Source of the DNA: an uncultured Prevotellaceae bacterium
GTDB lineage: Bacteria; Bacteroidota; Bacteroidia; Bacteroidales; Bacteroidaceae
Direction of reading: 5' to 3'
DNA length: 64,000 bases
NCBI GenBank assembly: GCA_900543815.1
Contig: UQST01000005.1
Coordinates: 54,908-118,907, forward strand
This document shows, piece after piece, positions 362 through 49,255 of the stretch (position 1 is the stretch's first letter; each line of letters begins with the position of its first letter). A program made the translations under genes and the position numbers. The notes below the pieces were generated by a model. That model was not told the origin of the DNA. It made no database searches and saw only the letters and a program-made list of their open reading frames with translations.

Positions 362-450
362 AAGCGCACTGCGCTGCGAAGCCTGATGCAGCGTGCTGCG
401 ATGGCCGTTGCAATGCGCTGCGGAGACTGGTGCAGCGCACTGCGTCATCC
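362..450. repeat. Dispersed GC-rich palindromic repeat, copy A (built from GCAGCGYRCTGCG hairpin modules)
   Basis: aagcgcactgcgctgcgaagcctgatgcagcgtgctgcgatggccgttgcaatgcgctgcggagactggtgcagcgcactgcgtcatcc; shares blocks with copies at 37602-37676 (same orientation) and 49176-49255 (inverted). Confidence 0.6.
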
Positions 451-616
451 ACTCCTTATGCCGCTCGGAAGGGCTGCCGGCCGGCTTCTGTGCGGCTTTT
501 CCCAGGCTTCTTCTTTGCTTCCTGCGGGCTTGGGCGGGCTGCAAAAGGTGCTGGGTGCCGCCTGCTGGTGGTTTGCGAGGCGGGAGCTTGTGTAGTGCGA
601 GGTCAGAAAACATCAA

Positions 617-650
617 GCGGGAAGGCTGTCGTGACGGCATTCCTTCCCGC
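617..650 (-). terminator. Candidate intrinsic terminator downstream of nrdG
   Basis: Stem GGGAAGG/CCTTCCC (7 bp, 16-nt loop); on the minus strand a U-rich run (cuugauguuuucug) follows; about 55 bp downstream of the nrdG stop. Confidence 0.35.
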
Positions 651-705
651 TTGTTGCTTTATCTTGTCTGGCTTGCATGCTTGTGCACCAGGCGTTTCGG
701 CTGGT

Positions 706-1212
706 CTATAAGTCCCAGCAAGGTCTCTCCCAATGCACGGGTTCGCCTTTGAGGGCGCTCTCGCGTGCCATCAGAATGCGCTGGTTGGTGCTTCCCCTGA
801 ACAGAGCCTCCTCGCTGCGCTTGCTTGCTATGAAGGGTCCATCCACCAGCACATCTATATTGCAGAGCAGTTCCCTGCTGCTCCCGTCTCTGAGTAACTG
901 CTCCAGAGTGAATCCCGTATAGCACCAGATGGTCTTCTCTGACCGGCTCTTGATGAGTTTGGCCAGTTCTGCGAAGGCTTCGGCTTGGTAGAAGGGATCT
1001 CCCCCGGTGAAGGTGACATCGGCAAAGGGGTCGGCCAATATCTCCTCCAGAAGTTCCTCCGTGGTGGTGTCTGTGCCGCTGCCGAATGCCCACGACTGTG
1101 GGTTGTGGCATTGCGGACACTCGTGGCGGCAGCCTGCACAGTAGATGCTCGTGCGCAGGCCGGGGCCATCCACGGTGGTATCATGCAGTACCTTCAGAAC
1201 ATTAATTGTCAT
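706..1212 (-). CDS. nrdG: Anaerobic ribonucleoside-triphosphate reductase activating protein (radical SAM)
   Basis: 168 aa; CxxxCxxC-like cluster CAGCRHECPQC near the N-terminus; directly downstream of nrdD and overlapping it by 11 nt, typical nrdDG coupling. Confidence 0.85.
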   Translation of the reverse strand: MTINVLKVLHDTTVDGPGLRTSIYCAGCRHECPQCHNPQSWAFGSGTDTTTEELLEEILADPFADVTFTGGDPFYQAEAFAELAKLIKSRSEKTIWCYTGFTLEQLLRDGSSRELLCNIDVLVDGPFIASKRSEEALFRGSTNQRILMARESALKGEPVHWERPCWDL

Positions 1213-3412: not shown

Positions 3413-3588
3413 TGTCGGTATTATTGTGGTAAATGTTTTACTTCTGTTCGCAGGCTCGCTGTTTCCTCTCGGGCGGTATGCTGGCATCCCAGCATCATTG
3501 CACTGGCATGTTGGTGTCAGCGTGTTGTAATTCCCATGGCAATGTGCTTGTATCTCTCTGGCTGTGTGCTGGAGTTCTTCTGGCAGTA

Positions 3589-3640
3589 TGCTGAAAAGAA
3601 ATTGCGAGGCCATTTCCTCTTGTGGAATGACCTCGCAAAG
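3589..3640 (-). terminator. Candidate intrinsic terminator on the minus strand between the GH31 gene and nrdD
   Basis: Inverted repeat TTGCGAGG...CCTCGCAA (8-bp stem); on the minus strand it is followed by UUUCUUUUC. Confidence 0.4.
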
Positions 3641-7964: not shown

Positions 7965-8141
7965 GCCCAAGAAAGGCTTTTCGCGCTTGGCAGAAAGGCG
8001 TTTCATCTTTGGCTTAAAGTCATTTTGCGTTTGGCGGAAAGTCGTTGTGTCTTTTGCCGAAAGTCCGTTCGCGTTCCGTCGAAAGCCACTCCTACTTGCC
8101 CGGAAACCCTTTTTCTCGAGCAAGAAAAACCGAAGCGGGGC
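7965..8141. repeat. Degenerate tandem repeat, about 22 bp x 8, core TTGGC-GAAAG-C-TT, in a 675-bp divergent intergenic region
   Basis: Units read directly: tgcccaagaaaggcttttcgcgc / ttggcagaaaggcgtttcatc / tttggcttaaagtcattttgcg / tttggcggaaagtcgttgtgtc / ttttgccgaaagtccgttcgcg / ttccgtcgaaagccactcctac / ttgcccggaaaccctttttctcg / agcaagaaaaaccgaagcgggg. Confidence 0.55.
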
Positions 8142-9117: not shown

Positions 9118-9119
9118 GC

Positions 9120-9887
9120 ATGGGCAAGGGAAAGCTGGCTAAGTTTGCCGACATGGCAGCCAATCCGCTGGTGGTGGAGTGCCCATTTGCGGTTCTCCAG
9201 GCCGACGGGTTTGACCTGAAGGGGAAGTGGAACACCGACTTCTTCCACAACGACAAGCCCATCGTGCTCGAGTTGGGCTGCGGACGAGGCGAATACACGG
9301 TGGGGCTGGGACGGATGTTCCCCGACAAGAACTATATCGGAGTGGATATCAAGGGAGCACGCATGTGGACAGGAGCCCAGGAGGCAGTGGCTGCAGGCAT
9401 GCAGAATGTGGGCTTCCTGCGCACCAACATCGAGTTCATCGACCGCTTCTTTGCCCCTGGCGAGGTGAGCGAGGTGTGGCTCACCTTCTCTGACCCGCAG
9501 ATGAAGAAGGTGACCAAGCGCCTTACGGGCACCGCCTTTCTGCAGCGCTATCGCGCATTCATGCAGCAGGACGGACTGGTGCATCTCAAGACCGACAGCA
9601 ACTTCCTATATACATACACGCGCGAGATGCTTTCTGCCAACGGCATCCAGCCCATTGCCGAGACGCGCAATCTCTATGCCGAACCGGCCCAGGGGATGAT
9701 AGCAGTGGCACAGTCGATACAGACCTACTACGAGAGCATGTGGCGTGGCAGAGGCATCGACATCAAGTATCTGTGCTTCCACTTGCCGCTCGAGGGACAG
9801 CTGACAGAGCCTGACGTGGAGATTCCGCTCGATGAGTACCGCTCCTACAGCCGGCAGAAGCGCTCGAGTCTGGAGGTCAGCAAGTAG
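9120..9887 (+). CDS. trmB: tRNA (guanine46-N7)-methyltransferase
   Basis: 255 aa; SAM-binding [10 protein letters not shown] motif; overall TrmB-like layout. Confidence 0.8.
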
Positions 9888-10024
9888 GCGGGAGCACAGG
9901 AGAAGCAGGAACATGGAATTATGAATGGATTGGGAATCCGATGGGGGAGGGCAGATGCAGGCATCTTCGGTATGCCGCCGGGCCGACCCGCCATCCGTGG
10001 TTTCCAGTCTGAAAACAATAGCAG

Positions 10025-11125
10025 ATGGAACTATATCCTAAACTGATAACAGACGCACTCTCCACCGTGCGTTATCCTGGAACAGGAAAGAATGTGGTGG
10101 AGATGAAGATGCTGGAGGACGACTTGCGCATCGCAGGCATGCACGTCAGCTTCACACTCATCTTCGACAAGCCCACCGACCCCTTTATGAAGAGCATGGT
10201 GAAGGCTTGCGAGGCTGCCATACACGCTTATGTGAGCAAGGATGTGGAGGTTGAGGTGAAGACCAAAGCCTTGCAGGCTCCCCGTCCAGACCTCCCCGAT
10301 CTGCTTCCCGGCGTGAAGAACATCATAGCCGTAAGCAGTGGCAAGGGCGGAGTGGGCAAGAGCACAGTGGCTGCCAATCTGGCTGTGGCACTGTCCAAGA
10401 TGGGCATGAAGGTGGCTCTGCTCGATTGCGACATCTTCGGTCCTTCAGTACCCAAGATGTTCCATATAGAGGATGCCCGTCCCTATAGCGAGCGCATCAA
10501 CGGCCGCGACCTCATCATGCCCGTGGAGAAGTACGGAGTGAAGGTGCTCAGCATCGGCTTCTTCGTCAATCCCGACCAGGCAACGCTCTGGCGTGGAGGT
10601 ATGGCATGCAATGCCCTCAAGCAGCTCATAGGTGATGCCAACTGGGGCGACATCGACTATTTTGTCCTCGATACTCCTCCCGGAACCTCTGACATCCACC
10701 TCACCCTGGTGCAGACATTGCCCATCACAGGTGCTGTCATCGTGAGCACACCCCAGCAAGTGGCACTGGCCGATGCACGCAAGGGCATCAACATGTACCA
10801 GAACGACAAGGTGAATGTGCCTATTCTCGGACTGGTGGAGAACATGTCATGGTTCACTCCAGCCCAGCATCCCGACGAGCGTTACTTCCTCTTCGGGCAG
10901 GAAGGTGTGAAGCACCTGGCCGAGGAGATGAATGTGCCTCTCCTGGGACAGATTCCTGTGGTGCAGGATATCTGCCAGAGTGGCGACGAAGGAACGCCTG
11001 CAGCCCTCGACCCAACTACTACCACCGGCCATGCCTTCATGCAGTTGGCTGCCCGTGTAGTTACCGAGACCGACCGACGCAACTCGCAACTCCCTCCCAC
11101 CACCATAGTGGGTACCCACAAGTAA
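10025..11125 (+). CDS. mrp: Fe-S cluster carrier ATPase, Mrp/ApbC/NBP35 family
   Basis: 366 aa; N-terminal DUF59-like domain; deviant Walker A SGKGGVGKST; CxxC-containing C-terminal region. Confidence 0.9.
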   Translation: MELYPKLITDALSTVRYPGTGKNVVEMKMLEDDLRIAGMHVSFTLIFDKPTDPFMKSMVKACEAAIHAYVSKDVEVEVKTKALQAPRPDLPDLLPGVKNIIAVSSGKGGVGKSTVAANLAVALSKMGMKVALLDCDIFGPSVPKMFHIEDARPYSERINGRDLIMPVEKYGVKVLSIGFFVNPDQATLWRGGMACNALKQLIGDANWGDIDYFVLDTPPGTSDIHLTLVQTLPITGAVIVSTPQQVALADARKGINMYQNDKVNVPILGLVENMSWFTPAQHPDERYFLFGQEGVKHLAEEMNVPLLGQIPVVQDICQSGDEGTPAALDPTTTTGHAFMQLAARVVTETDRRNSQLPPTTIVGTHK

Positions 11126-11290
11126 GCAACCTATAGATAAGCAAATCCCTAACTGGCCTATGGCCTTACCAAGGAAGCCGCTGACAAATAAGCAACCTAC
11201 TGGCTTATGGCCTTATTAAGGATGCCGCTGACAAATAAGCAACCTACTGGCCTATGGCCTTACCAAGGGAACCGCTGAGAAATAAGCAAC
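11126..11290. repeat. Tandem repeat, about 47 bp x 3 (TAAGCAACCTACTGGCCTATGGCCTTACCAAGGAAGCCGCTGACAAA), starting at the mrp stop codon
   Basis: Three consecutive near-identical units read directly; the first unit has a roughly 19-bp insertion; a fourth partial unit (taagcaacctatacaaacaac) follows. Confidence 0.6.
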
Positions 11291-11306
11291 CTATACAAAC
11301 AACAAG

Positions 11307-11342: not shown

Positions 11343-11699
11343 ATCGTATGCTCGGCATGAGCATTGTCTAACGGGTGCAAGTCCCAGGGAAAGGGCTATT
11401 TGCGAGTGTAAAGCAGTTATCTCATGTGCAGGATTCATTTTGCCTCCAGGGCGGGTATGCCGTACATCTCCACCGTCCAACCCAAGGCTGGACGGTCAGA
11501 GAATATATATTACTTTGCCAAGTAAGCAAGCTTCATCCACCGTCCAGCCTAGGGTTGGACGGTCAAGGGCAACTTCTTTCCTGATGTGAAGACACACAGG
11601 AAGTGCCGAAGAAGCCTACATCTCCCTGTTCACCAATCGGCTTCCCTTGTACAGCCTCGGAATCACAACCATCCGTTACTCTGTATTTACAGGGTGGTT

Positions 11700-14686
11700 G
11701 TTGCGCTATGTCCTCTTTCATCACCAAACCACAACCTCAAGGTGGTTCTCTGCGGATATAGTATGTTGCGTTATATCCTCTTTCATCACCAAACCACAAC
11801 CTCGGGATAGTAAGTCTTGCCGTCGGCATCGTTGCGTTATATCCTCTTTCATCACCAAACCACAACAGGTGCGTGTAATGCCCATGCCTTTGCCTGTTGC
11901 GTTATATCCTCTTTCATCACCAAACCACAACTAGGGCTGATAGGTTTTTGTGTGTGATTGAGTTGCGTTATATCTTCTTTCATCACCAAACCACAACCTT
12001 ATGACTGGTTTGATGGTTTATGGTACGTTGCGTTATATCTTCTTTCATCACCAAACCACAACCCTCCTGCTGCTACTAAGCCTAATCAAATGTTGCGTTA
12101 TATCTTCTTTCATCACCAAACCACAACAGTTACGGCAAATAATTGCTTTTGTTGTTGTTGCGTTATATCTTCTTTCATCACCAAACCACAACCTTTTTGC
12201 TTATTATAAAGCGTGGTTCGATGTTGCGTTATATCTTCTTTCATCACCAAACCACAACATGGCACTAAGGATAATTATTTGGGGATGGTTGCGTTATATC
12301 TTCTTTCATCACCAAACCACAACCTGCGTCTGATGTTCTTACCTTTATTAAGGTTGCGTTATATCTTCTTTCATCACCAAACCACAACCCAGCTGGGGAC
12401 ATAAAGTAACATTATACAGTTGCGTTATATCTTCTTTCATCACCAAACCACAACCAACAATGAAACAAGTAACATTAAAATCCAGTTGCGTTATATCTTC
12501 TTTCATCACCAAACCACAACCCGATTGACTCGCATAAGAGTCCTTTCTTGGTTGCGTTATATCTTCTTTCATCACCAAACCACAACCAATTCGTGCAGGA
12601 TTGTGTTTCTTTGGGGTTGCGTTATATCTTCTTTCATCACCAAACCACAACTTGGTGAGTGTGATATCGCCGCTAAGACTGGTTGCGTTATATCTTCTTT
12701 CATCACCAAACCACAACTCAAGGACGACCGCTTTCCACTGGATAACGTTGCGTTATATCTTCTTTCATCACCAAACCACAACTTTTTCATGCGTTTGTCC
12801 GCTCGTACTTGGTTGCGTTATATCTTCTTTCATCACCAAACCACAACCTTGAATGGGATTTGGTAAAGGACAATTAGTTGCGTTATATCTTCTTTCATCA
12901 CCAAACCACAACCTTTTTCCTCTGTTCCTCGTGTGCTTGGTTGTTGCGTTATATCTTCTTTCATCACCAAACCACAACAACTCGAGTATGAAAATCAGCG
13001 TAATGCAGTTGCGTTATATCTTCTTTCATCACCAAACCACAACGCAGGGCGGCTTCCCCGTCTCAAGACACCAGTTGCGTTATATCTTCTTTCATCACCA
13101 AACCACAACTTACCGCTTCGGATAGTGGCATAATGATGAGTTGCGTTATATCTTCTTTCATCACCAAACCACAACTCCAAGGTTCTGACTATGACGTATT
13201 TATAAGTTGCGTTATATCTTCTTTCATCACCAAACCACAACATGACCTTAGTTCTTTTTCTCGTTCAAATAGTTGCGTTATATCTTCTTTCATCACCAAA
13301 CCACAACCCGAAATCTCTTCTGATGTTGTGCGTGTATGTTGCGTTATATCTTCTTTCATCACCAAACCACAACTTTTGTATGATGCTTCACGGCCTGATA
13401 AAGGTTGCGTTATATCTTCTTTCATCACCAAACCACAACCTATAGCAAGAGAGCATAACGCTAATGCAGGTTGCGTTATATCTTCTTTCATCACCAAACC
13501 ACAACTTGATTTGAGTGCTTTGTGCCGTTCTAACAGTTGCGTTATATCTTCTTTCATCACCAAACCACAACATCGCCCGGCTGGTACATCTTTCTTTGTT
13601 GTTGCGTTATATCTTCTTTCATCACCAAACCACAACGTCAAGTCTCTGCAAATGAATCCATTGCTCGTTGCGTTATATCTTCTTTCATCACCAAACCACA
13701 ACTGCAAGATGCTGCTTTTCGTACTCGCGAACGTTGCGTTATATCTTCTTTCATCACCAAACCACAACCTGAGATGGAGGCTATACGTGCCAATATTGTT
13801 GCGTTATATCTTCTTTCATCACCAAACCACAACTTGTTACCATATTTGCGCAACACGGTATTTGTTGCGTTATATCTTCTTTCATCACCAAACCACAACT
13901 GGTTGGTGAATTGCTTACGCTTGGTGTTGTTGCGTTATATCTTCTTTCATCACCAAACCACAACTGCGCGCTACTCCTATGGCTGGTGTCGGTTGTTGCG
14001 TTATATCTTCTTTCATCACCAAACCACAACTCCAGTATGTCTAAATCTCGTTATTTCCGGTTGCGTTATATCTTCTTTCATCACCAAACCACAACGCGCT
14101 GCTCTTGCTCCTTTTGTTAAGTAGGTTGCGTTATATCTTCTTTCATCACCAAACCACAACTGCGTGATTATCATTCACCTATACAACAAGTTGCGTTATA
14201 TCTTCTTTCATCACCAAACCACAACTATGGTGCTTATCGTGGTATCCGTGGTTCTGTTGCGTTATATCTTCTTTCATCACCAAACCACAACTGTTACATT
14301 GTATTATTGCTATTGCTTGTGTTGCGTTATATCTTCTTTCATCACCAAACCACAACGCAGGGCGGCTTCCCCGTCTCAAGACATAAGTTGCGTTATATCT
14401 TCTTTCATCACCAAACCACAACCGGTATCGGAATGTAATTTAACATAGAAATGTTGCGTTATATCTTCTTTCATCACCAAACCACAACGCCCGCTTTGAT
14501 GGTTGCAAATATATACATGTTGCGTTATATCTTCTTTCATCACCAAACCACAACCCCTTGCAGATGGTTCTGCTCCTGCGACTGGTTGCGTTATATCTTC
14601 TTTCATCACCAAACCACAACTCCCCGAGAAGTTTTGAACGTGATTGGGTAGTTGCGTTATATCTTCTTTCATCACCAAACCACAAC
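11700..14686 (-). CRISPR. CRISPR array, 46 repeats of 36 nt with 45 spacers of 29-30 nt. Plus-strand repeat: GTTGCGTTATATCTTCTTTCATCACCAAACCACAAC. crRNA orientation (minus strand): GTTGTGGTTTGGTGATGAAAGAAGATATAACGCAAC
   Basis: Repeat starts counted by eye at 11700, 11765, 11831, 11896, 11962 ... 14585, 14651, period 65-66 nt. The four cas-distal repeats are degenerate (11700 copy GTTGCGCTATGTCC...; next three ATATCC instead of ATATCT). Lies directly downstream of cas2 on the same strand. Confidence 0.95.
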
Positions 14687-14770
14687 CTGTATTCCTTATG
14701 TGCTGTAATATTATACAGTTACAAGGCGTATATAGTACAGAAAATGGAATGGCGAGTTCCTTATCTATGG

Positions 14771-14778
14771 CAAAATTA
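14771..14778 (-). promoter_or_regulatory. Candidate leader promoter -7 element (TAATTTTG on the minus strand), immediately after the cas2 stop codon, about 85 nt upstream of the leader-proximal repeat
   Basis: Matches the Bacteroidetes TAnnTTTG -7 consensus; the -33 TTTG element is not clear. Confidence 0.3.
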
Positions 14779-15117
14779 CTAAAAAAACTCAAGTTGCACA
14801 GGCTTCTTTTGTACTTTTTGTTCTATCTCTCCCCATATATTGATGATGTTGGAGTATTGTTTGTCGGTTATCGTGATTATACTAAGTCTTCCCTTGCTGG
14901 GCATGAAGAGTTTTACCCGCTTGACGTGTACATCCCTTGATTCGAGTGAAGCACAGAAACGAATGTACACACTATATTGGTGCATTACGAATCCGTCGCG
15001 TTCAAGGCTCTTGCGGAAAACTGCATAATCATGTTTCTCCTTCTTGCTGACGGTTGGTAGGTCGAACATAACAACAATCCACATTATCTTATATGCATTG
15101 AGACGTGTTTCGCTCAT
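14779..15117 (-). CDS. cas2: CRISPR-associated endoribonuclease Cas2
   Basis: Track ORF 14779..15237 has an N-terminal extension overlapping cas1. Likely start at the internal ATG at 15117 (MSETRLNAYKIMWIVVMFDLPT..., about 112 aa, Cas2 size), overlapping the cas1 stop by 4 nt. Confidence 0.8.
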   Translation of the reverse strand: MSETRLNAYKIMWIVVMFDLPTVSKKEKHDYAVFRKSLERDGFVMHQYSVYIRFCASLESRDVHVKRVKLFMPSKGRLSIITITDKQYSNIINIWGEIEQKVQKKPVQLEFF

Positions 15118-16001
15118 TTGAGGGTAGGCAATGACAGTTTCTTCTGTTCCCCTGCATAGCATTTGGCAAGTGATGCCATGGTCATGGACAATCCTATTTG
15201 TAGCGGGCGGGTGACTTTGGGATAGTAAGTGTCGCACGATAGGCAGGATAACAGCTCAAACTTTGTATCTTTGTTCAGTTGAAGTTTGCCTTCTTCGCAG
15301 AGATTATAGACTATTTCATCCACGAAGGGGCGGAAAGGCTCCATCAGATCATCGGCAAGCGGAAAAGCGTTTCCTCTGTTGTGATGGAATATACCCAGGG
15401 AAGGAGTCAATCCTGCAGCCACTAACGCGCGGGCTGTTGCTGCACGCAGGATGGTGTAGCCGTAATTCAGAAGCGAGTTAATTCCGTCCTCATTGCGGTC
15501 TCTGAAGAAGTCTTTGCCAAACAGTTCTGTCCAATAAAGTTTTGCAGCTATCCCTTCTCGGTTGTCAACGTCTCCACTCTTTACGTTGGAGTATAGTGGC
15601 TTGAGGATATCTCCTCTGCCGTGCAACTTGTCTAATAATGCTGCTTGGTTGTTGATTTTGGATTCTATTATCTGTTTCCACAGTTGTTTCTTCTGCACTT
15701 CTCCTACGTTGATTTGATTGCGCAGAAATTCCCCTTGAAGGTTGTTGGCATCCAAATTCTGTAGCATGGCATGTGGCATGCCTTTCCTATCGCAGAGGAT
15801 TACAGCCACACCATTATCAACAAGTTCGTTGAGAAGTGGCATTGTCACACTGACCATTTGGTTCTCAATGATAATCATGCCAGTGTCCTCAATCGGGACT
15901 GTACGCACTTCGTCAGGAATGCCCTTGATAGTTATTACCAGTTGGGCATTCTTGAGCGAAAGTTGCGCAGGGGAGGTGAAGCAAAGTGTGCGTTTAAGCA
16001 T
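15114..16001 (-). CDS. cas1: CRISPR-associated endonuclease Cas1, type II
   Basis: 295 aa; sits between cas9 and cas2; acidic/His-containing C-terminal half (GIFHHNRGNAFPLADDLMEPFRP) typical of Cas1. Confidence 0.85.
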   Translation of the reverse strand: MLKRTLCFTSPAQLSLKNAQLVITIKGIPDEVRTVPIEDTGMIIIENQMVSVTMPLLNELVDNGVAVILCDRKGMPHAMLQNLDANNLQGEFLRNQINVGEVQKKQLWKQIIESKINNQAALLDKLHGRGDILKPLYSNVKSGDVDNREGIAAKLYWTELFGKDFFRDRNEDGINSLLNYGYTILRAATARALVAAGLTPSLGIFHHNRGNAFPLADDLMEPFRPFVDEIVYNLCEEGKLQLNKDTKFELLSCLSCDTYYPKVTRPLQIGLSMTMASLAKCYAGEQKKLSLPTLK

Positions 16002-16006
16002 ACTGA

Positions 16007-19000
16007 TTATTTTAGCTTGATTTCACCAATTGGTGTGATTTCAAAATCTACACCTTCTACTAAGGCCTTGAACTGGGTATGGTAGAGAAAAATAGATGCT
16101 CGTATCGGGTCTGTGTTCTTGTATGCTCCCTTTGTTATCTGTACGTCCTTGGCACTTCTAGCCTCACTGTGATGTCGTAGCGTGATTGTTCCATACCAAG
16201 TGCCTACAGGCAGGTAGCTTAGCCCTACTATCTTGTATAGACGTTTTGAGACGTCATTGACGTCTTTGAAGTCTATCTCCGTTGCACTGTTTTCGTACAA
16301 AAGAACCATCTGCCCAATCTTCAGCAAGTACTTGAGAGCGTAGCCCTTGGAACTTTTCTCTGGCACTATTGCAGGATAGTCATTTCTGTCGGTACTCTTC
16401 TTATAATAAGCCGCAGCATCAAGATTGTTCACAATCTCGTACTCTCGTTTTGTCTTACCTTTAACCATACCTTCGTAGATGGCGAGACAGTAGTTGCCGT
16501 CGTTAGCCACGTTGAATGTCTGCTTGTATTCTTTGGTGCTGGCATCCCGATGATGACGAATGTGAAGTGGAGTCTTAACAGATGGGGTATAGCAACGTAC
16601 CTTCTTAATCTCAATTCCTTTCTCTTCGTTCATGAATACGGGCTGGAGCACATTGTTCACAAAGGCAGCTTTCACTTTTTCTCTGACTACTTCATCCACA
16701 ATCTTATCTACATCGCTGAACTTGAAAGTGCAGTCAAGTGTCCTGCGAACCACATATTTTACGTCTCCATCCTGCTCTATGGCTCCATAGTAGGTATCCT
16801 GATGCAGGCTACCACGGGCACAATCTCCCTTGGCCTGTTTCTTACCATGGGGAGTGTCTATCATGCGGCAGGCTTTCTTGGGCATGTTGTCAGGAGTGTC
16901 GTGTACGACAAGCAACTCTTCGCTTATCTGCTTGAGGTCTTGGGTAAACGTGCTCCAGGGTTTGGGGAATATGGGCTTTTCGCCTTTGCCCTCTGTATAG
17001 TCATACATCTCATGATGATATCTGCTCATCTGGTTGAGCTCGTTCTTGCCGATGCAGGCTATGACTATAGCATCGATGCAATGGTGCGTGTGGCTGTCAC
17101 GTGACTTCTTTTCGTACTCTTCCTGTATCCCCCACATCTTGCGGAACTCTGCTGTGATGGGACCTTTGATGCTGAATACCTGTCGGCGTTCAGGGTGTAC
17201 CACATCGTGGAAGTAGCTCTTCAGATAGAGGGCAGCATACTTGGAGATGAGGCCGATGCCAGCTCCCTGACGCAGTGCAAAGCCTTCGGGCACTTCCTCC
17301 ATAGTGAAGCGCTGGTATTTGCCATGCCAGTAATCGCGCTCTATCTTCAGGCGGTTCTTCTTGCGTATGAGAGTGTCCTTGGTAGTTTTGTCCCAAACAC
17401 CTCGCGTGCTTATCTTGTCTATCTGTTTCGTGAGTTCTTCTACCTTCTTCTTCCAAGGCTCGATGCGAACAAGAATCTGTTCGTAATCAGGGAGCTTGGA
17501 AGGCAGTTGGGCTTTCTTGACAAAGCGGTTGTAATGGCTGTCACACAGGGTCATATTCTCCTGGGTGCTGTCACCTCCCACGCTGCGAGGTATGGTGTGC
17601 TCAATGTCAAAGGGAGTGCCTGCACCGACGAAATCAGTGATGCCGATATTCTTGCCTGTGTAAAGGCACACGTGGTCCTGTTCCTCCCACAATTGGAACT
17701 TGAGTATGTCGGTCTCTGTCGGCTCGATATCGCGGTTGGTCTGCTCTCTGTACAGCTTCTTCAGCTCCTCTGCATATTCCTTGTGCTTCTTGTCCAGTGT
17801 CCTCTGATGTTCGTTTATAGCGGCACGCATATTGGCATTGTTCAGTGAACGGGCATACTCGACGTGCACTTCTGTGTCGGGTCCAATCTTCCCTTCTTTG
17901 ATAAGGGTGTTCACTACCTTGCGTATTTCATGCAGAGAACGCATAGCCATGGGGTTGCGCACAGCATTGGTACGCGGGCTGCCCAGAAGGACAACTCCAT
18001 CATGGTTGGGCTTTGCATCCGGATAAGTCTCTATCATCGATGGGTGATAAAGCTTCTCCAACGCTTTCTCGCAGACGCCAAATTCCTCGTGCAGGAAATC
18101 CTTGATACAGAATTCGAGTGTGGAACGTTGGTCTCTCACTTCGTCAAGTGGTGCTGTTGCCATCTTGTTCACCTGGTCAAGGATTCGTTCACGCTTCTCT
18201 GGGTCGTTCCATATGTCGGCACCCACCAGTTTGGGAATGTTGCCCATAAACACAGCATGACTGTAGAGCATGCCCATCCTCAGGAAAGGAAGGACGTTGC
18301 GGATGGCCTTGAGCGAGAGTGATGAGAAGTTGTGGCTCAGGCGTATCTTGGCAAATTTCTCGGCATGTTCCTCGTCGAGTTGCAGGTGGTTGATGCCAAA
18401 CTCTTTCAGTTTGTCCTTGCTGTCGAAGAAATAGAGCACGTTCCAGATGTCGCATGCCATCTCTTCGGCAGTCTTTTGTCTGCCGTCCTTGCATTGGTTC
18501 ATGTCGAATGTCTCGGCTATTCCTTCCATCCAGTTGTCACCAAAGACGGTACGGAGCTGGGCTATCGTATGACATCCAGGCACACCTTGCGTCATGCGGA
18601 AGTTGAACTTGTATGGCTTTTTGCCAGCCTCCTTCGCATACTGGTAGTTGCCTTTTCCTGCTATCTTCTTGGCTATCTCTTCAAAGTCAAAGTTGGCCTT
18701 GCTCACTCGATAGAAGAGAGGCTTAATCTTGTACAACTCCACTTCGTTCAGGGGACGAGGTTCCATGTCATAAGGGTCTTCGATGCGCACGTTGTTGAGG
18801 AAGGACAACATGCGGAACTCCTCATACAGCGGATGAGAATCACTGCATCGTGGTTTGTTCTTCTCGAAGGTACATTTGCCCACGCTTTGACGTTGGCTTT
18901 TGAGCGGACGCTGGAAGTAAAGAGCGCGTTCCAGTTCATGCCTTATCTCTTGGCTTAATCCCTGTTTGTCGCAGATGGCATGGAACTCTTTCTTGTAATG

Positions 19001-19663
19001 CTCTTCGCGGTCGATGTATCTTGTTCGTATGCGCACTTTGTTTCCCTGTTGCGTGTATAGCATGTAGAAGTATTCGCCCAGGTATTCGCACCCGGCTTTC
19101 TCCATCTCTTGGCTCAACTCCGAAATGCCTTGCTTTACGGCTCCGCTTTCTTTTTCCTCATTGGCATCCAAACGATTGCTCATGAATCCTCTGCGCTGTG
19201 CCAGATGATAAAGGGCTCTTCCCAGAGTATAGCGGTCAGCCTGTTTGTTGAGGTCGAACTTTTCCGTCAGGCAGATGTGGCGACTGTGGTAGGGGTTGAT
19301 GCCTTTGTTCTCATCTGTGCGCTGCCACTGCATGAATTCATCCTTTCTGGGATAAATCTTGCGCGTATGCCACAGCTTCAGATCCTCTTCTGTCAATGCT
19401 GGACACAGATTGTGCTTGACAAGCACCTTGAGCACTTCTATCTTGCGCAGTCTGCGTCGGAAGTATTGGCGTCGCAATGCTCTGTGGGCAGTTCGATCTG
19501 CTGCCTTGCTGGACTCTATGCCCTTCTCTATCTTGACTCCTTCCTGAAAGATGAGTGTTCCTTTGTCCACCAATGTCTGTTCACCGCTTTCTTCGCGGTC
19601 AACAATGGCCCATCCGAGGCTGTTGGAGCCAGTATCAAGGCCTAAAACACGCTTTTTTGCCAT
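16007..19663 (-). CDS. cas9: Cas9, type II-C, compact at 1218 aa
   Basis: RuvC-I LGLDTGSNSLGWAIV (Asp at position 10); Arg-rich bridge helix RTAHRALRRQYFRRRLRK; RuvC-II VHVEYARS; HNH FDIEHTIPRSVGGDSTQENMTLCDSHYNRFVKK; RuvC-III HHCIDAIVIA. No csn2 or cas4 in the locus, hence II-C. Confidence 0.95.
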   Translation of the reverse strand: MAKKRVLGLDTGSNSLGWAIVDREESGEQTLVDKGTLIFQEGVKIEKGIESSKAADRTAHRALRRQYFRRRLRKIEVLKVLVKHNLCPALTEEDLKLWHTRKIYPRKDEFMQWQRTDENKGINPYHSRHICLTEKFDLNKQADRYTLGRALYHLAQRRGFMSNRLDANEEKESGAVKQGISELSQEMEKAGCEYLGEYFYMLYTQQGNKVRIRTRYIDREEHYKKEFHAICDKQGLSQEIRHELERALYFQRPLKSQRQSVGKCTFEKNKPRCSDSHPLYEEFRMLSFLNNVRIEDPYDMEPRPLNEVELYKIKPLFYRVSKANFDFEEIAKKIAGKGNYQYAKEAGKKPYKFNFRMTQGVPGCHTIAQLRTVFGDNWMEGIAETFDMNQCKDGRQKTAEEMACDIWNVLYFFDSKDKLKEFGINHLQLDEEHAEKFAKIRLSHNFSSLSLKAIRNVLPFLRMGMLYSHAVFMGNIPKLVGADIWNDPEKRERILDQVNKMATAPLDEVRDQRSTLEFCIKDFLHEEFGVCEKALEKLYHPSMIETYPDAKPNHDGVVLLGSPRTNAVRNPMAMRSLHEIRKVVNTLIKEGKIGPDTEVHVEYARSLNNANMRAAINEHQRTLDKKHKEYAEELKKLYREQTNRDIEPTETDILKFQLWEEQDHVCLYTGKNIGITDFVGAGTPFDIEHTIPRSVGGDSTQENMTLCDSHYNRFVKKAQLPSKLPDYEQILVRIEPWKKKVEELTKQIDKISTRGVWDKTTKDTLIRKKNRLKIERDYWHGKYQRFTMEEVPEGFALRQGAGIGLISKYAALYLKSYFHDVVHPERRQVFSIKGPITAEFRKMWGIQEEYEKKSRDSHTHHCIDAIVIACIGKNELNQMSRYHHEMYDYTEGKGEKPIFPKPWSTFTQDLKQISEELLVVHDTPDNMPKKACRMIDTPHGKKQAKGDCARGSLHQDTYYGAIEQDGDVKYVVRRTLDCTFKFSDVDKIVDEVVREKVKAAFVNNVLQPVFMNEEKGIEIKKVRCYTPSVKTPLHIRHHRDASTKEYKQTFNVANDGNYCLAIYEGMVKGKTKREYEIVNNLDAAAYYKKSTDRNDYPAIVPEKSSKGYALKYLLKIGQMVLLYENSATEIDFKDVNDVSKRLYKIVGLSYLPVGTWYGTITLRHHSEARSAKDVQITKGAYKNTDPIRASIFLYHTQFKALVEGVDFEITPIGEIKLK

Positions 19664-28626: not shown

Positions 28627-29063
28627 TGTGTACTATTGTATGTTTAGAGTTTACGTATTTCCTTGCAAAGTTAGCCAATTTATATTAGCCATGCGTCCTT
28701 TTTTCTCCTTTTTTTATTATAGAGTGCTTTTCGTGGGCTTATGTCTGGTGGCGGGAAATAGCCTCCCGGGTGCTGCCCAACCTATTGCCAGCCTGCCTTC
28801 AGCCTGCGTGCAAGGGGCTGTAGGCTGGCTTCTCGCTTGGAGCCATAGTGCTGCGGGGGCAATCCCAGCGTGCTTCGACGGGCTGGTCAGCGCGCTGAAA
28901 ACGGGAATGAAGCGTGCTGCCTCTTGGGGGCAAAGGAATCGGGCGGAGAACCGGATTGGTTTTCTTTGGAAAAAGAAAGAAGCCTGAGCGTTGGCACTCA
29001 GACTTCTATGTCATTTCTCCTGCTTCCCTGCATGCGCTTGGCATGTGCGGTGGGGGAGGGCGG

Positions 29064-37419: not shown

Positions 37420-37601
37420 CTTCTTAACCTTTATTGTGCTGCAAAGTTAAGCACTTTTCTGGTATGCACAATAACCAGAAATGCGGAAGAAAATACCCTT
37501 GTGCGGCATCTGCATCCGCCAGCTCCGCATTCCGCAGTTTGCTCCTCTCCAGCTTGCAGTTACACATTATATATAATAGAGAGTTCTTCCTTCGTTTTTC
37601 C

Positions 37602-37676
37602 AGTGCGCTGCATCAGCCGTCGCAGTACGCTGCGTCAGCCTGTGCAGCATGCTGCGACGGTCATCGCAGCGCACTG
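37602..37676. repeat. Dispersed GC-rich palindromic repeat, copy B
   Basis: cagtgcgctgcatcagccgtcgcagtacgctgcgtcagcctgtgcagcatgctgcgacggtcatcgcagcgcactgg. The ends CAGTGCGCTGC / GCAGCGCACTG form an inverted pair. The internal block cagcctgtgcagcatgctgcgacgg matches copy A aagcctgatgcagcgtgctgcgatgg. Confidence 0.6.
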
Positions 37677-38172
37677 GCTTTTCTGCATCCATGGTTTCGT
37701 GTTTTTCTGGCAGCAGTCTCTTTTTGTCCTCGCAGCCTTTTTCATTTATGTTCCCTGCCTGGTGAAATCTCCATACCAAGGTTGCGTATGGCCGTACAAA
37801 GCCTTCTGATGTACATCCAAAGGCTGCGTATGGCCATCCAAAGGCTGCAAACGGAGATTTTGGCAAGCTCTTTTCGTAATATTATCTGGCTTTTTGAAGA
37901 AGTCAGGATTGTTGGATGAAGAACGGGAGCAAGGCTACTGGGCTGCCGTAGCAGTCGGCTTTTGTCAGAAAGAATGCGTGCTGCTCTTGGGAAAGGATGA
38001 TGGCGTGGGGCTGTCAAAAGTAAGTTTTGGATGGAGAAGCAGGCAGCAGGGACGCTTGTAAAAAAGTAAAAGTTTGCCCTACGCAGCCCGAATGCTCGGG
38101 ACGGACGTAAGCCAAACTTATGGAATATGTAGTGTAAGGTTTGTCGCTTAGTGCTGTGCGGGCGCTCTTTGC

Positions 38173-41949: not shown

Positions 41950-41950
41950 T

Positions 41951-44911: not shown

Positions 44912-44918
44912 AGAAGAC

Positions 44919-46298: not shown

Positions 46299-46345
46299 GA
46301 GGCGCAACGGCAGGCTCCCGAACGGCAAAAAGGCAGTTTCGGAAA

Positions 46346-46560
46346 GCCATTCTGCTCATCGGCTCCGCTGAGGGATGTGGCTCCCAAAAGCCATCCAGCT
46401 CATTGGCTCCGCTGATGGAAACGACTCCAGAAAGTCATTCGGCTCATTGGCTCTGCTGAGGGATGTGACTCCCAAAAGCTTTTGAGCTTATCGGCTCCGC
46501 AGAGGGAAGCGACTTCTGGAAACCGTTCTGCCAACTGGCTCCTACGTGGAACCCCATTCC
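46346..46560. repeat. Tandem repeat, about 44-45 bp x 4.5 (GCCATTCNGCTCATYGGCTCCGCTGAGGGATGTGRCTCCCAAAA), inside the lpx operon between lpxC-fabZ and lpxA
   Basis: Units read directly: gccattctgctcatcggctccgctgagggatgtggctcccaaaa / gccatccagctcattggctccgctgatggaaacgactccagaaa / gtcattcggctcattggctctgctgagggatgtgactcccaaaa / gcttttgagcttatcggctccgcagagggaagcgacttctggaaa / partial. Confidence 0.6.
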
Positions 46561-46758
46561 TGCCGAGGCAGGAGCAATGAAAGGCAGGCTTGTGAGCCTG
46601 TTTCGATAGACAAAATAGTGATAACAATGGGACTCTCTCAGGGCTGTGCATGCACATTCTTTCCCCCTTGGGGATACATGAGAGAACCCTTAGCCGCACA
46701 AGAACCCCCACTTAGAATGCGGCTCCTCCCCAATGGGGCAGGCGGGGGTAGAGCATCT

Positions 46759-47532: not shown

Positions 47533-47554
47533 GGCTGGCTTAAACCTCATTCCT

Positions 47555-48085
47555 ATGACACTCAGACTTACCCTCTTCAGCCAAGAAGTAGAGGACTTCG
47601 TGGTGGAGATAAAGATTGATGCCGAGGCTACATTCGCCGACCTTCATCGTCTCATACTGGCCGACTGCGGCTATCAGGAGATAGACGGACAGAAGTTCCT
47701 GCTCTGCGATGAGGATTGGCGTGTGGAGAAACAGGTGTGCATGCGTGATGCAGATGCCCGTTCAGAGGAGGATGTCTATCTGATGGAGCATACTGTCATC
47801 GGCGAGCTGATGGATGATGAGGGCCAGCGTCTGGCATATGTCTTCGACCCTGAAGCCAAGCGTTTCTTCCTGATGGAACTCACTGAGAACCTCTTTGGCC
47901 AGCCTGAACCAAAGCCTCGGGTAAGCCGTCGTCACGGCAAAGCCCCTCTGCAGTCGGTGCAGGATGAGGATGAGGCTGCTCCCGCAGCCAATGCCGGTGG
48001 TGCCGAGTCGGGCGAGAGTTTCTACGGAGAGGACGGTTTCGAGGACGAAGAACTTGACCTCGAAGGATTTGAAATCAGTGAGTGA
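47555..48085 (+). CDS. Conserved hypothetical acidic protein
   Basis: 176 aa; highly acidic C-terminal tail (EDEELDLEGFEISE); no recognisable catalytic motif. Confidence 0.55.
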   Translation: MTLRLTLFSQEVEDFVVEIKIDAEATFADLHRLILADCGYQEIDGQKFLLCDEDWRVEKQVCMRDADARSEEDVYLMEHTVIGELMDDEGQRLAYVFDPEAKRFFLMELTENLFGQPEPKPRVSRRHGKAPLQSVQDEDEAAPAANAGGAESGESFYGEDGFEDEELDLEGFEISE

Positions 48086-48101
48086 ACCGGCACCCAGGCA
48101 G

Positions 48102-48998
48102 ATGAACCTGGTGGTGCTCATTGGTCCCACGGCGGTGGGCAAGACGGATGTGGCCCTACATTTGGCCACTTCCCTGTCGTGCCCAGTGCTCAATTGTGAC
48201 AGTCGTCAGATATATCGTGGGATGGATATAGGCACTGCCGCTCCCACGGCAGAAGAGGTGGCACGTGTGAAGCACTACTTCGTGCGCGAACTCGAATTGG
48301 GTCAGGACTACAGCGCAGCCCGCTATGAGCAGGATGCGCTGGCTGTCATCAGCAGCCTCTCAGGCACCCATCACCATGCGGTGCTGTCGGGTGGAAGCAT
48401 GATGTATGTGGATGCCGTGTGCCAGGGCATTGATGATATTCCCACGGTGGATGCCCAAGTGCGTGCCGACCTGAAAGCCCGCTTCGAGCAGGAGGGGCTG
48501 GAGCCTTTGCTCAGGGAGCTGGAACGCCTTGACCCCGAATACTTCAGGATAGTGGATCACAAGAACCACAAAAGGGTCATCCACGCGCTTGAAATCTGCC
48601 ACACGGCAGGTTGCCCCTACAGCCGTTTCCGTGTGCGAGTCACCCGCCAGCGTCCCTTCAACATCATCAAGGTGGGGCTTCGGCGCGAGCGTGAGGAACT
48701 CTTTGCCCGCATCAATGCCCGTGTGGATAGGATGATGGAGCAAGGATTTCTCGAAGAAGCCCGCCGGCTCTATCCACTGCGCCACCTCAATGCGCTCAAC
48801 ACCATCGGCTACAAGGAGATGTTCCGCGTGCTGGATGGCGAATGGGAGTTGCCTATGGCGGTGGAACGGATGAAGAAGAACACGCGCGTGTATGCCAAGA
48901 AGCAGATGACTTGGTATCAGCGCGACGAGAGCATCACTTGGTTTCACCCCGATGACGGGCAGGCTATCCTGCAGCATGTGTTGAACTGCAGCCGGTAG
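48102..48998 (+). CDS. miaA: tRNA dimethylallyltransferase
   Basis: Real start MNLVVLIGPTAVGKTDVALHLA at 48102; P-loop GPTAVGKT. Confidence 0.85.
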   Translation: MNLVVLIGPTAVGKTDVALHLATSLSCPVLNCDSRQIYRGMDIGTAAPTAEEVARVKHYFVRELELGQDYSAARYEQDALAVISSLSGTHHHAVLSGGSMMYVDAVCQGIDDIPTVDAQVRADLKARFEQEGLEPLLRELERLDPEYFRIVDHKNHKRVIHALEICHTAGCPYSRFRVRVTRQRPFNIIKVGLRREREELFARINARVDRMMEQGFLEEARRLYPLRHLNALNTIGYKEMFRVLDGEWELPMAVERMKKNTRVYAKKQMTWYQRDESITWFHPDDGQAILQHVLNCSR

Positions 48999-49175
48999 GG
49001 TAGCACATTGCTCTGCCGGAACAAGCATACAGAAAGACAGAAGCAGTACTGTTGGTTTCCGTTTCCAAGCCTATTGGCCAATTCGTGCCGGTATGCTTGC
49101 ACGTGAAGCCCACAGTACTGCTTTTCTTTTGAGAAAAGGGTAGAGCCGGCACGGGTTGTACAGTTGGGCTGTTGG

Positions 49176-49255
49176 CACAATGCGGTGCGTCGGCCATCGC
49201 AGCGTGCTGTGCTTGTCCTCGCAGCACGCTGCATCGGGCATCGCAGCATAGTGCG
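49176..49255. repeat. Dispersed GC-rich palindromic repeat, copy C, inverted relative to A and B
   Basis: The reverse complement of copy A contains ggccatcgcagcacgctgcatcaggc; copy C contains ggccatcgcagcgtgctg...cgcagcacgctgcatcgggc. Confidence 0.6.

Follow-up and report, generated by a model that had tools for sequence, protein, structure and literature searches.

Repeat arrays in the window

We have analysed a stretch of 64 kb from an uncultured Prevotellaceae bacterium (hereafter the window), in which three GC-rich palindromic repeat copies, E1, E2 and E3, lie close to nrdG/nrdD, dxs and miaA, respectively. These copies had been noticed in the original prediction and they are real and were correctly positioned, with all the sequence blocks quoted there present and the flanking genes confirmed. 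Their non-coding surroundings, described as unusually long, are indeed the longest intergenic regions of the window (588, 753 and 553 bp for E1, E2 and E3, compared with a median of 84 bp). What that first description lacked is the architecture of the copies, each of which is a tandem of four units with a period of 22 bp (the period found also by TRF).

E1 (358..450) has the common orientation of the family on the minus strand, with the cores of its four 22-bp units at 365-378, 387-400, 409-422 and 431-444 and, on that strand, a terminus reading ...GCAGTGCG-CTTTGTG. It is located 262 nt 3' of the nrdG stop, and the next minus-strand gene is found ca. 244 nt downstream of it. E2 (37599..37682, plus strand; four units with cores at 37599-37612, 37621-37634, 37643-37656 and 37665-37678) comes closest of the three to a perfect palindrome and its units are directly followed by TTTT (37679-37682). 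It is antisense to both neighbours, with the start of dxs 180 nt away and the stop of a TonB-dependent receptor gene 494 nt away. E3 (49176..49259, plus strand; four units with cores at 49176-49189, 49198-49211, 49220-49233 and 49242-49255) also has TTTT directly after its units (49256-49259) and is placed 177 nt past the miaA stop and 296 nt ahead of the PBP1A start, with a separate hairpin and T-run (ca. 49040-49134) between miaA and the array. For E2 and E3, folding predicts stable hairpins with UUUU immediately 3' (z = -7.6 and z = -3.0 against shuffles, respectively).

The last copy had been taken as the inverted one, but it is the first: E2 and E3 are direct repeats of each other and E1 matches both best as a reverse complement. 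Since the elements are quasi-palindromic, they align in both orientations. Pairwise similarity among the three is 71-73% over 82-89 nt and ends at the element edges; outside the arrays, comparison of the three intergenic regions revealed no similarity and no shared flanks. To the three copies originally counted a fourth, degenerate one has to be added (E4, 28842..28921, without assignable orientation), within a 437-bp intergenic region, in which four core remnants (…AGTGCTGCG…CAGCGTGCTTCG…CAGCGCGCTGA…AGCGTGCTGC…) keep the exact 22-bp register and the predicted fold is no better than that of shuffles. Chance does not produce such chains: four-unit chains in exact 22-bp register were found four times in the 64-kb window and never in 60 shuffles, the two-unit pattern gave 6 matches vs. 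none in shuffles, and the core motif CGCAGCRYGCTGCG had 10 matches with up to two mismatches, where 1.37 were expected, 8 of them inside E1-E3.

Unit and array structure

Across the family the unit is a 22-bp module made of a 14-nt dyad core (CGCAgYRYgCTGCg) and an 8-nt linker, and modules follow each other head-to-tail. The logo of 191 units reads CGCAgCGCgCTGCg followed by tnnGCcnn (unit consensus CGCAgCGCgCTGCgtnnGCcnn), with the information maxima at GCA and TGC. These two arms, separated by six nucleotides, are nearly invariant and the centre is variable; on average ca. 10 of the 14 core positions are self-complementary. Arrays contain from 3 to 14 units in strict 22-bp register, the commonest type being that of four modules (ca. 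85 bp), and in some genomes there are up to 13-14 nearly identical modules in a row. Units are found in both orientations and the register is kept whatever the orientation of the unit centre. The tetranucleotides preceding the cores vary (CATC, CGTC, CCTC, CTTC, TGTG, CAAC). Frequently an A-rich run borders the array at one end and ...GTGCGTTTTT at the opposite end, and the family consensus with borders is ...A.A-[units]-GGTGCGTTTTT.

Direct identity between units exceeds their cross-complementarity, i.e., the arrangement is mainly a direct tandem. Selection for hairpins between specific partner units was considered and rejected: complementarity is approximately equal for all unit pairs, below direct identity, and covariation counts are flat. 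Any array can nevertheless fold as a long hairpin or cruciform because every unit is near-palindromic.

The original prediction had offered, as one of two readings, a small structured RNA family. Each copy would in that case be an independently transcribed sRNA gene of ca. 90-120 nt, which we consider very improbable. The copies do sit in long non-coding gaps, with an orientation independent of the neighbouring genes, and the hairpin plus U-run at the 3' end resembles an sRNA terminator. However, the covariation expected of an RNA family is absent for the long hairpin and only marginal for the unit dyads. In 29 four-unit elements the long hairpin was 72.7% paired vs. 72.6% after shuffling (217 of 500 shuffles reached the observed value). 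For the unit dyads the figures were 83.9 and 82.0% (8 of 500 shuffles), with a covariation score that was reached by 13 of 500 shuffles and falls within the stated false-positive range of the tool. The substitutions that distinguish strains in E2 are not compensatory either, and the number of units, from 3 to 14, also speaks against such a gene. Rfam searches with the whole window at the gathering score, and with the three intergenic regions at a permissive E-value, retrieved no family at threshold, only sub-threshold eukaryotic miRNA hairpin and lncRNA models. A candidate sRNA gene was discarded, with no Bacteroidetes-type TAnnTTTG promoter upstream and no small ORF of note; over 28 elements, this promoter motif was located within 130 nt upstream in only one.

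Placement relative to genes

All of the 50 arrays checked were intergenic. Gene calls for this analysis came from our own codon-usage caller, which reproduces the annotated genes of the window. The copies favour neither a type of gene end nor a gene direction. Arrays were found in 22 tandem, 6 divergent and 5 convergent contexts, matching the 133, 31 and 23 of all intergenic gaps, without depletion between divergent genes, and the gene ends facing them were three-prime in 43 cases and five-prime in 40. An enrichment between convergent genes that appeared with crude ORF calls vanished with the codon-usage caller; shadow ORFs and starts set too far upstream had made the crude calls untrustworthy. 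The positions and orientations of the arrays are random relative to genes.

Many arrays end in a run of T. With a T-run defined as at least four T in the first six outward bases, 38 of 54 arrays carry one or more (9 of them at both ends), which amounts to 47 of 108 array ends vs. ca. 2.4% expected. It is conceivable that selection maintains the arrays as transcription terminators, as insulators or as protectors of RNA 3' ends, in which a hairpin plus U-run (with an A-run opposite in some copies) would stop or buffer read-through between transcription units in either direction. A GC-rich hairpin followed by a T-run is what E2, E3 and the family consensus with its borders present, and two strains carry a change in E1 that moves it in the same direction (see below). 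However, the T-runs are short (3-6 bases) and do not lie on the sense strand downstream of a gene more often than chance would place them: their direction agrees with the upstream gene in 20 cases and disagrees in 17, and in arrays with a single T-run between co-directional genes it is consistent in 7 and inconsistent in 7. Besides, E2 is directed against both of its neighbours, divergent gene pairs are not avoided, and E1 and E3 follow separate hairpin-plus-T-run signals of nrdG and miaA (signals that we read from the sequence and that a simple scan did not pick up). We therefore regard selected termination or insulation as a doubtful explanation.

Stability within the species

E1, E2 and E3 were each present in all 10 other strains examined, always with four units and without a single indel in the 11 genomes available per locus (the window plus 10 strain contigs). 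By way of comparison, unrelated 44-bp repeats in the same strains vary in length in 44-bp steps. Nucleotide diversity was also lower in the elements (pi of 0.024-0.034) than in the flanking non-coding DNA (0.043-0.058), with pooled segregating sites of 30/270 and 222/1451, respectively. Between species the situation is different. A related MAG with an 88% identical nrdD region lacks E1 at the orthologous site, and among 80 dxs loci E2 was present only in L101, which belongs to the same species, and absent from the 78 loci of other species. The three copies, fixed and stable in length within the species of the window, have no counterparts at orthologous sites of other species.

Some of the polymorphisms are of a conversion type. 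In two strains, unit u2 of E1 has become the reverse complement of u3, which creates a 13-bp perfect u2/u3 stem, and the T-run is longer owing to a C>T change. In another case (L190), three nucleotides of E2 have changed to match the complement of the central loop.

These data bear on another interpretation, that of arrays of phased protein-binding sites in double-stranded DNA. A putative dimeric protein would sit on each GCA-N6-TGC dyad, and the 22-bp spacing (approximately two helical turns) would set successive dimers on one face of the helix, providing platforms for a nucleoid-associated, topology-related or silencing protein. The BIME-2 arrays of E. coli, which bind gyrase and IHF, would be a parallel. 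Two invariant trinucleotide arms around a variable 6-nt centre with no pairing covariation are what such sites would look like, and the same can be said of a register that is independent of the orientation of the unit centre, of positions that are independent of gene direction and of copies that are fixed, free of indels and less diverse than their flanks. On the other hand, no candidate protein was found, decayed copies exist, and the patchy presence in Prevotellaceae and the absence at orthologous sites of sister species would be odd for a chromosome-organising system. The strict register is also the automatic outcome of slippage of a 22-bp unit, and lower diversity could stem from conversion or base composition. 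On balance, we think that a protein-binding role is possible but rather unlikely.

Distribution

A scan over 185,579 species, with a search pattern that demands a unit spacing of 21-23 nt, detected at least 94 loci, in agreement with the suggestion that three copies in one window belonged to a genome-wide family. Among the loci listed, 51 of 94 were from Bacteroidales, mostly Prevotellaceae MAGs, and four MAGs contributed 18, 13, 6 and 5 loci among the matches listed. JBNMJN01 and CAJOLZ01 are MAGs rich in arrays. The hosts are some gut and rumen Prevotella-like bacteria, with a patchy presence among Prevotellaceae. At least 10 arrays lie no further than ca. 100 nt from the end of a contig, as would be anticipated if a multicopy repeat interrupts the assembly. 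We have discarded the matches outside Bacteroidales, which were either isolated matches in genomes of high GC content or repeats of 21-23 nt whose unit has another sequence (in Treponema, Actinoplanes and Nocardia), retrieved because the search pattern itself requires that spacing. Carriage by mobile elements was likewise rejected: no matches to the family were found in plasmids or phages, and viral contigs gave only 4 single matches, at chance level. In one related MAG the arrays are flanked by a different GC-rich hairpin repeat in inverted orientation (CCTCCCCC..GGGGGAGG), which is absent from the window and for this reason has not been included in the definition of the family. The family is apparently undescribed so far: it did not appear in our search of the literature on Prevotella repeats, REP, RAYT/REPIN and Bacteroidales minisatellites.

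Comparison with known repeats

REP/BIME, the other reading originally proposed, is the one that has survived, in the sense of a dispersed intergenic palindromic repeat. Like the REP/BIME elements of Enterobacteriaceae and Pseudomonas (including RAYT-mobilised REPINs), the sequences studied here are short, GC-rich imperfect palindromes, extragenic, multicopy and lineage-specific, arranged in arrays with fixed linkers, in either unit orientation and in variable number (as in BIME-2), and with hairpin potential in the absence of RNA-type covariation. REPs are hairpins of 20-40 bp, usually paired head-to-head, which accumulate after genes and are scarce between divergent ones. Here the dyad core has only 14 nt and the arrangement is mainly a direct tandem, neither 3'-end enrichment nor divergent-gene depletion is observed, neither GTAG nor CGTC is consistently present as a tag, and none of the loci inspected revealed a RAYT gene, the IS200/IS605-like Y1 transposase that the repeats flank in REPIN-RAYT systems. 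Several defining features fail, and the REP/BIME label holds by analogy only.

The mycobacterial MIRU and intergenic VNTR minisatellites are also head-to-tail tandem intergenic units present at many loci. MIRU units measure 46-101 bp and are located inside operons, and their copy number differs from strain to strain. Such strain polymorphism is not found here, E1-E3 being invariant in length in the 11 genomes per locus. The superfamily of CGTC-tagged REPs, to which the dRS3 of Neisseria and some repeats of Bacteroidetes belong (Di Nocera et al., 2013; PMC3733652), is defined by stems of 8-9 bp that start with A/T pairs, loops of 4-5 nt and CCA tails (PMC3733652). Some of our units are preceded by CGTC or CATC (e.g., CCGTCGCAG in E2), and that superfamily, too, has no known transposase of its own. 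However, the tag is inconsistent in our family (CATC, CGTC, CCTC, CTTC and TGTG all occur) and the characteristic stems, loops and tails are not present. On these structural grounds we have rejected assignment to the GTAG or CGTC superfamilies.

A parallel within the same order, Bacteroidales, is BrickBuilt, a minisatellite/MITE of Porphyromonas gingivalis (Klein et al., 2015; PMC4596501), with a 23-nt unit (AGACCATAGTATCCTCTCATATG), from 1 to 22.8 units per locus, and leader and tail segments that carry IS5-like terminal inverted repeats (GAGACCTTTGCA) (PMC4596501). Both families are always intergenic, separated from the genes on either side by tens to hundreds of nt and often beyond the own terminator of the upstream gene, and both consist of head-to-tail units without spacers (23 vs. 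22 nt) with long predicted stem-loops and no Rfam match. A spacer-less tandem unit in variable number (1-22.8 per locus in BrickBuilt, 3-14 here) is what we see between loci, but not between strains, since E1-E3 have four units in every strain examined whereas BrickBuilt varies. In addition, our unit, unlike that of BrickBuilt, is itself a dyad and is found in both orientations. Homology was rejected: the BrickBuilt unit is unrelated in sequence (no matches in the window with up to three mismatches), and matches to its terminal repeats in the window were below chance, none of them beside an element.

Many unrelated intergenic tandem repeats of Prevotellaceae have periods of ca. 22, 44 or 88 nt, and repeats of 22, 23 and 41 nt have been published in P. 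gingivalis. A period of ca. 22 nt may not be peculiar to the GCA-N6-TGC family, and might reflect a molecular ruler shared in Bacteroidales, a speculation that we consider improbable. The ruler could be an abundant DNA-binding protein reading sites phased every two helical turns, or a replication or repair process that would duplicate DNA in steps of ca. 22 nt, and the GCA-N6-TGC arrays would be its best-defined substrate.

Possible origin of the arrays

The interpretation that we favour, with moderate confidence, is that of a lineage-restricted intergenic repeat family of some Prevotellaceae, REP/BIME-like or BrickBuilt-like by analogy and unrelated in sequence to either. In our best reading, the copies behave like passenger repeat DNA, as for example the REP elements of E. 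coli, and not like an RNA gene. The family would spread, or be created anew, in intergenic DNA, and replication slippage of the 22-bp unit would lengthen the arrays. Conversion and intrastrand template switching would then keep the units alike and make them locally more palindromic, a process suggested by those differences between strains in which several nucleotides at once reproduce the adjacent unit, directly or as its reverse complement. Slippage and template-switch conversion have probably shaped the arrays. An RNA polymerase reading through a copy that ends in a T-run might meet a terminator-like barrier, which we take to be a by-product of the element and not the reason for the location of the copies.

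There are observations that do not sit easily with passenger DNA. No mechanism of dispersal emerged: in the loci inspected we found neither a transposase beside the copies nor a target-site duplication, and the copies in the window share no flanks. A RAYT or transposase between closely spaced arrays was also dismissed, as the ORFs found there in the loci inspected encode part of an outer-membrane beta-barrel and two proteins that have no match in Pfam. The lower diversity of the elements and their fixation in all strains are a hint of some constraint, hence of a host function. A purely neutral model does not explain the excess of T-runs at array ends, and the invariant GCA and TGC arms, the free centre and the repeat of two helical turns fit a phased protein-binding array as well.

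Implications

In practical terms, the family breaks short-read assemblies of abundant uncultured Prevotellaceae from gut and rumen and inflates their intergenic regions, and its copies can be expected to be miscalled as spurious ORFs or, by motif finders, as "structured RNA". The family consensus provides a simple marker of a clade. With this family, repeats of the REP/BIME and BrickBuilt type are now known from Prevotellaceae as well, and it offers a clean natural example of quasi-palindrome conversion, in which multi-nucleotide polymorphisms copy a neighbouring unit or its complement. If it were true that the arrays bind a protein, or block transcription both ways, they would supply parts for the engineering of Bacteroidales, and if the period of ca. 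22 nt across unrelated repeats is real, it would point to an unrecognised mechanism.

Anatomy of the Repeat in the Window

All three stretches that the original prediction had described as a dispersed, GC-rich palindromic repeat were found in the window sequence, and the observation of a repeat family was a good one. Each is a modular tandem array of four 22-bp units, namely E1 (358-450, minus strand), E2 (37599-37682, plus strand) and E3 (49176-49259, plus strand). Tandem Repeats Finder gave a period of 22 for E1 and E2, and the start-to-start spacings returned by the repeat finder (window repeat family D5) were 22 and 22. The unit consists of a near-palindromic 14-nt core, CGCAGYRYRNTGCR, followed by an 8-nt linker. 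With up to two mismatches, this core matched 10 times in the window (1.37 expected), eight of the matches falling within E1-E3, and the two-unit pattern matched six times, against none in shuffles. Chains of four cores in exact 22-bp register, each core being allowed up to three mismatches, numbered four in the window, whereas 60 dinucleotide shuffles produced none. There is also a fourth, decayed copy, E4, at 28842-28921. E1-E3 are 71-73% identical in pairs over 82-89 nt and the likeness stops at the element edges. The last copy had been thought to be inverted, but the best alignments give E2 and E3 the same orientation and E1 the opposite one, i.e., it is the first copy that is inverted; weaker alignments appear in both orientations because the units are near-palindromic. 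The flanking genes are those predicted (nrdG/nrdD, dxs and miaA), together with a TonB-dependent receptor and a class A PBP. The gaps are unusually long, as had been claimed: by our own gene calls they measure 588 (E1), 753 (E2), 553 (E3) and 437 bp (E4), against a median intergenic gap of 84 bp.

The Family Outside the Window

The window's species, an uncultured Prevotellaceae, is common in human gut metagenomes, and hundreds to thousands of assembly blocks, samples from the Hadza and other cohorts among them, encode proteins identical to those of the window. One genome from each of 185,579 species was scanned with the two-unit pattern, which by design favors 21-23-nt spacing; this yielded at least 94 loci, and 51 of the 94 listed were from Bacteroidales. 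Among the matches listed, these were distributed over the MAGs JBNMJN01 (18), CAJOLZ01 (13), DCCS01 (UBA1075; 6) and a Paraprevotella MAG (5), plus nine singletons, including Prevotella conceptionensis. The further copies predicted beyond the window thus exist, and the family is multicopy in several genomes. The non-Bacteroidales loci listed were either lone matches in genomes of high GC content or repeats of 21-23 nt that differ in sequence. A 23-nt tandem repeat, GCGGGACACTCCCGCAGCATAAT, common to two Treponema gut MAGs (L013 3695-3777, L038 4918-5045), was rejected as a member, being a different family that matched the search pattern by chance. The family was not found in plasmid and phage collections, and viral contigs gave four single matches and no more. 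In P. conceptionensis (L067 769-892 and 3952-4053) there are AT-richer 22-nt tandem repeats with GCA/TGC motifs, TGCGTTTTGGTGCATATTGCAA and CTAAACGCAGTGCAATATGCTG, that may be distant relatives of the family; this is a cultured species and could be used for experiments.

Arrays in the Bacteroidales loci have 3-14 units, most commonly four, in strict 22-bp register. At least 10 are found ca. 100 nt or less from the end of a contig, where a multicopy repeat that breaks assemblies is expected to lie. The consensus over 191 units is CGCAgCGCgCTGCg-tnnGCcnn, with information maxima at GCA (positions 2-4) and TGC (positions 11-13) and a much freer center and linker. Conserved arms around a free center, repeated every two helical turns, are what phased protein-binding arrays on duplex DNA would look like, and the somewhat reduced diversity of the elements relative to their flanks (see below) is likewise not explained by purely passive DNA; still, we consider such a binding role unlikely.

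Placement and the Terminator Question

When set in one orientation, many elements have the layout ...AAAACGCAC-[units]-GGTGCGTTTTT, and 47 of 108 array ends carry a T-run (a run of four or more T among the first six bases outward), against ca. 2.4% expected from base composition. These T-runs, with crude ORF calls, first hinted at a terminator of the neighboring gene, an idea dropped after gene calling by codon usage, with a caller that reproduces the window's annotated genes. By these calls the arrays are restricted to non-coding DNA (50 of 50 intergenic) and indifferent to gene direction. Their contexts (22 co-directional, 6 divergent and 5 convergent) match those of all gaps (133, 31, and 23). 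Separate hairpin-plus-T-run signals, read by eye and not listed by a simple scanner restricted to loops of 3-8 nt, follow nrdG (ca. 612-655) and miaA (ca. 49040-49134), and E1 and E3 lie beyond them. The arrays could alternatively be selected bidirectional terminators or insulators, for which the strong T-run at their ends, unexplained by a purely passive model, is an argument. However, the direction of the T-run is independent of that of the gene behind the array (20 agree, 17 disagree; 7 vs. 7 where the array is one-sided and its neighbors are co-directional), arrays are faced by 43 three-prime and 40 five-prime gene ends, and E2 is oriented against both of its neighbors, all of which makes this role quite improbable.

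Folding and Covariation

The original prediction had suggested either a REP/BIME-type element, a likeness that holds by analogy, or a small structured RNA family, which is not borne out. Rfam gave nothing at gathering score, permissive searches returning eukaryotic miRNA and lncRNA models alone, far below threshold. Folding against shuffles was very good for E2 (z = -7.6), moderate for E3 (z = -3.0) and no better than shuffles for E1 on its common strand. In an ungapped alignment of 29 four-unit elements the full nested hairpin showed no covariation of the kind that had been proposed as a check, with 72.7% paired against 72.6% when partners were shuffled (217 of 500 shuffles as high). The unit-level dyads were 83.9% paired vs. 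82.0% shuffled (8 of 500 as high), a value inside the range stated by the tool for related sequences under no constraint. Units match each other directly (10.3-12.3 of 14) better than any two of them match as complements (9.8-10.8 of 14), with no exceptional pair, so the folding potential derives from the palindromic consensus of each unit and not from selected pairings. Besides, a Bacteroidetes -7 promoter motif was present within 130 nt upstream of only 1 of 28 elements. An sRNA family is very unlikely.

Turnover between Species and Stability within Them

The arrays turn over between species. In JBNMJN01, the gap downstream of nrdG retains both terminator and downstream promoter region and has no array (the nrdD region is 88% identical). 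Among 80 metagenome loci encoding dxs relatives, E2 is present only in L101 (96% protein and 97% gap DNA identity), with two non-compensatory substitutions relative to the window; 78 loci with at most 86% identity lack an array within 2.5 kb. The remaining one, L100 (98% identical protein), turns into unrelated AT-rich sequence at the end of its contig, ca. 10 nt from the edge of E2 (L100 1-110); a rearrangement or an insertion may have broken the sequence at the element.

Within the species the elements are stable. E1 was found in each of 10 further strains, and a different set of 10 all carry E2 and E3; the copies always have four units and no indels. Nucleotide diversity was 0.034 for E1 (flanking non-coding 0.043-0.044), 0.030 for E2 (0.045) and 0.024 for E3 (0.050-0.058), with ca. 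0.022 in neighboring coding sequence; pooled segregating sites (30/270 in elements vs. 222/1451 in flanks) give a consistent but modest deficit. Several polymorphisms of the elements change more than one nucleotide and reproduce the sequence of a different unit or of its complement. Three adjacent bases of the second unit of E1 have changed, in two strains, to the reverse complement of the third, giving a 13-bp perfect stem, and the tail has gone from CTTTG to TTTTG. In another strain the first unit of E1 became identical to the second, and the E2 of L190 has three changes that reproduce the complement of the central loop. Such changes are characteristic of conversion and of template switching at quasi-palindromes, as established in E. 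coli mutation studies, and are not RNA-type compensation.

Unlike E1-E3, unrelated 44-bp tandem repeats vary in unit number among the same strains. One of them (46342-46542, ca. four units, consensus AAAGCCATTCAGCTCATCGGCTCCGCTGAGGGATGTGACTCCCA) separates the lpxC/fabZ fusion gene from its neighbor; across 10 strains the end of the upstream gene takes four positions 43-44 bp apart (8744, 8788, 8832, and 8875, locus coordinates), which makes it a true VNTR. In the gap before a GDSL-lipase gene past the left end of the window (L180-L189, ca. 9300-10540), strains differ in length by ca. 24, 46, 133, and 154 bp, and 44-bp (L187 10226-10413, 4.3 units) and 44/22-bp (9408-9493) repeats are found; the orthologous gap of JBNMJN01 has an array of the 22-bp family instead (L029 6998-7055). 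Within the window, the E2 gap holds a second repeat (37765-37860, 3.7 units of 21 bp, CCATACAAAGGCTGCGTATGG) that forms a 53-nt overlapping palindrome and is conserved in L101. Further intergenic tandem repeats lie in the divergent gap upstream of a GH31 gene (7980-8075, period 44/22, 2.2 units) and at 11152-11293 (three units of period 47, 88% matches), directly ahead of the CRISPR array of a type II CRISPR-Cas9 locus (11696-19663). In this array (11696-14686) a 36-nt repeat, GTTGCGTTATATCTTCTTTCATCACCAAACCACAAC, recurs ca. 46 times, once every 65-66 bp; it has no relation to the 22-bp family. Cas9 (1218 aa) is at 16007-19663 on the minus strand, and two smaller ORFs between them (14779-15237 and 15114-16001) are likely cas2 and cas1.

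Origin and Relationship to Known Repeats

Hallmarks of mobile elements were sought at the arrays. The three intergenic regions of E1-E3 share no sequence outside the arrays, no target-site duplication was seen at the elements, and where arrays stand close together in CAJOLZ01, the ORFs between them are ordinary genes, with no transposases. JBNMJN01 (L016, L025, L054, L056, L077, L079, L087) has a different GC-rich hairpin repeat, CCTCCCCCAAGGGGGAGG / AGCCCCCTCCCNGCCTCCCCCAAGGGGGAGG, sometimes in 22-nt tandem, that is absent from the window; it flanks several JBNMJN01 arrays in inverted orientation as a MITE-like composite.

The closest published case is BrickBuilt of Porphyromonas gingivalis, present as tandem 23-nt repeats (1-22.8 units) at 19 intergenic loci, with long predicted stem-loops and with leader and tail segments that have IS5-like ends (PMC4596501). 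Neither its unit nor its terminal repeats are present in the window. Like REP/BIME, the 22-bp family is palindromic, extragenic and clustered, but it differs in lacking the location bias and end tags of REP; in the loci inspected it was not accompanied by a RAYT gene. Our literature search found no description of it. It is apparently undescribed, and we place it in no named family and regard it as an unsurprising type of bacterial repeat.

Most likely, in our view, it is a lineage-restricted family of intergenic repeats of REP/BIME or BrickBuilt type. Arrays would grow by slippage, their units would be homogenized by conversion and template switching, some route would spread them between sites, and hairpin or terminator-like effects would be incidental, arising when they are transcribed. 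The end T-runs, the reduced diversity and the conserved-arm, free-center pattern every two helical turns are unexplained by a purely passive model, which keeps the protein-binding and terminator/insulator alternatives alive.

A period near 22 nt also recurs among unrelated repeats. In the window and the 80 Prevotella dxs loci, which were not chosen for repeats, distinct tandem-repeat families have periods of 21-22 (17), 44 (4) and 88 (1). Repeats outside the 22-bp family in the Bacteroidales loci of the pattern scan (L006-L096) peak at 22 (7), 43-46 (5) and 88-89 (2). Control loci from outside Bacteroidales (308 kb) had periods that were mostly multiples of three, with 22 twice and 42-46 once. 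Parts of the P. gingivalis literature mention 22-, 23- and 41-nt repeats. As the bins were set post hoc on small samples, this clustering at ca. 22/44/88 nt in Prevotellaceae is a lead and not a result. It is doubtful that the family reflects a 22-bp “ruler” or some phased DNA-binding system of Bacteroidales; the period clustering could matter more than the 22-bp family itself.
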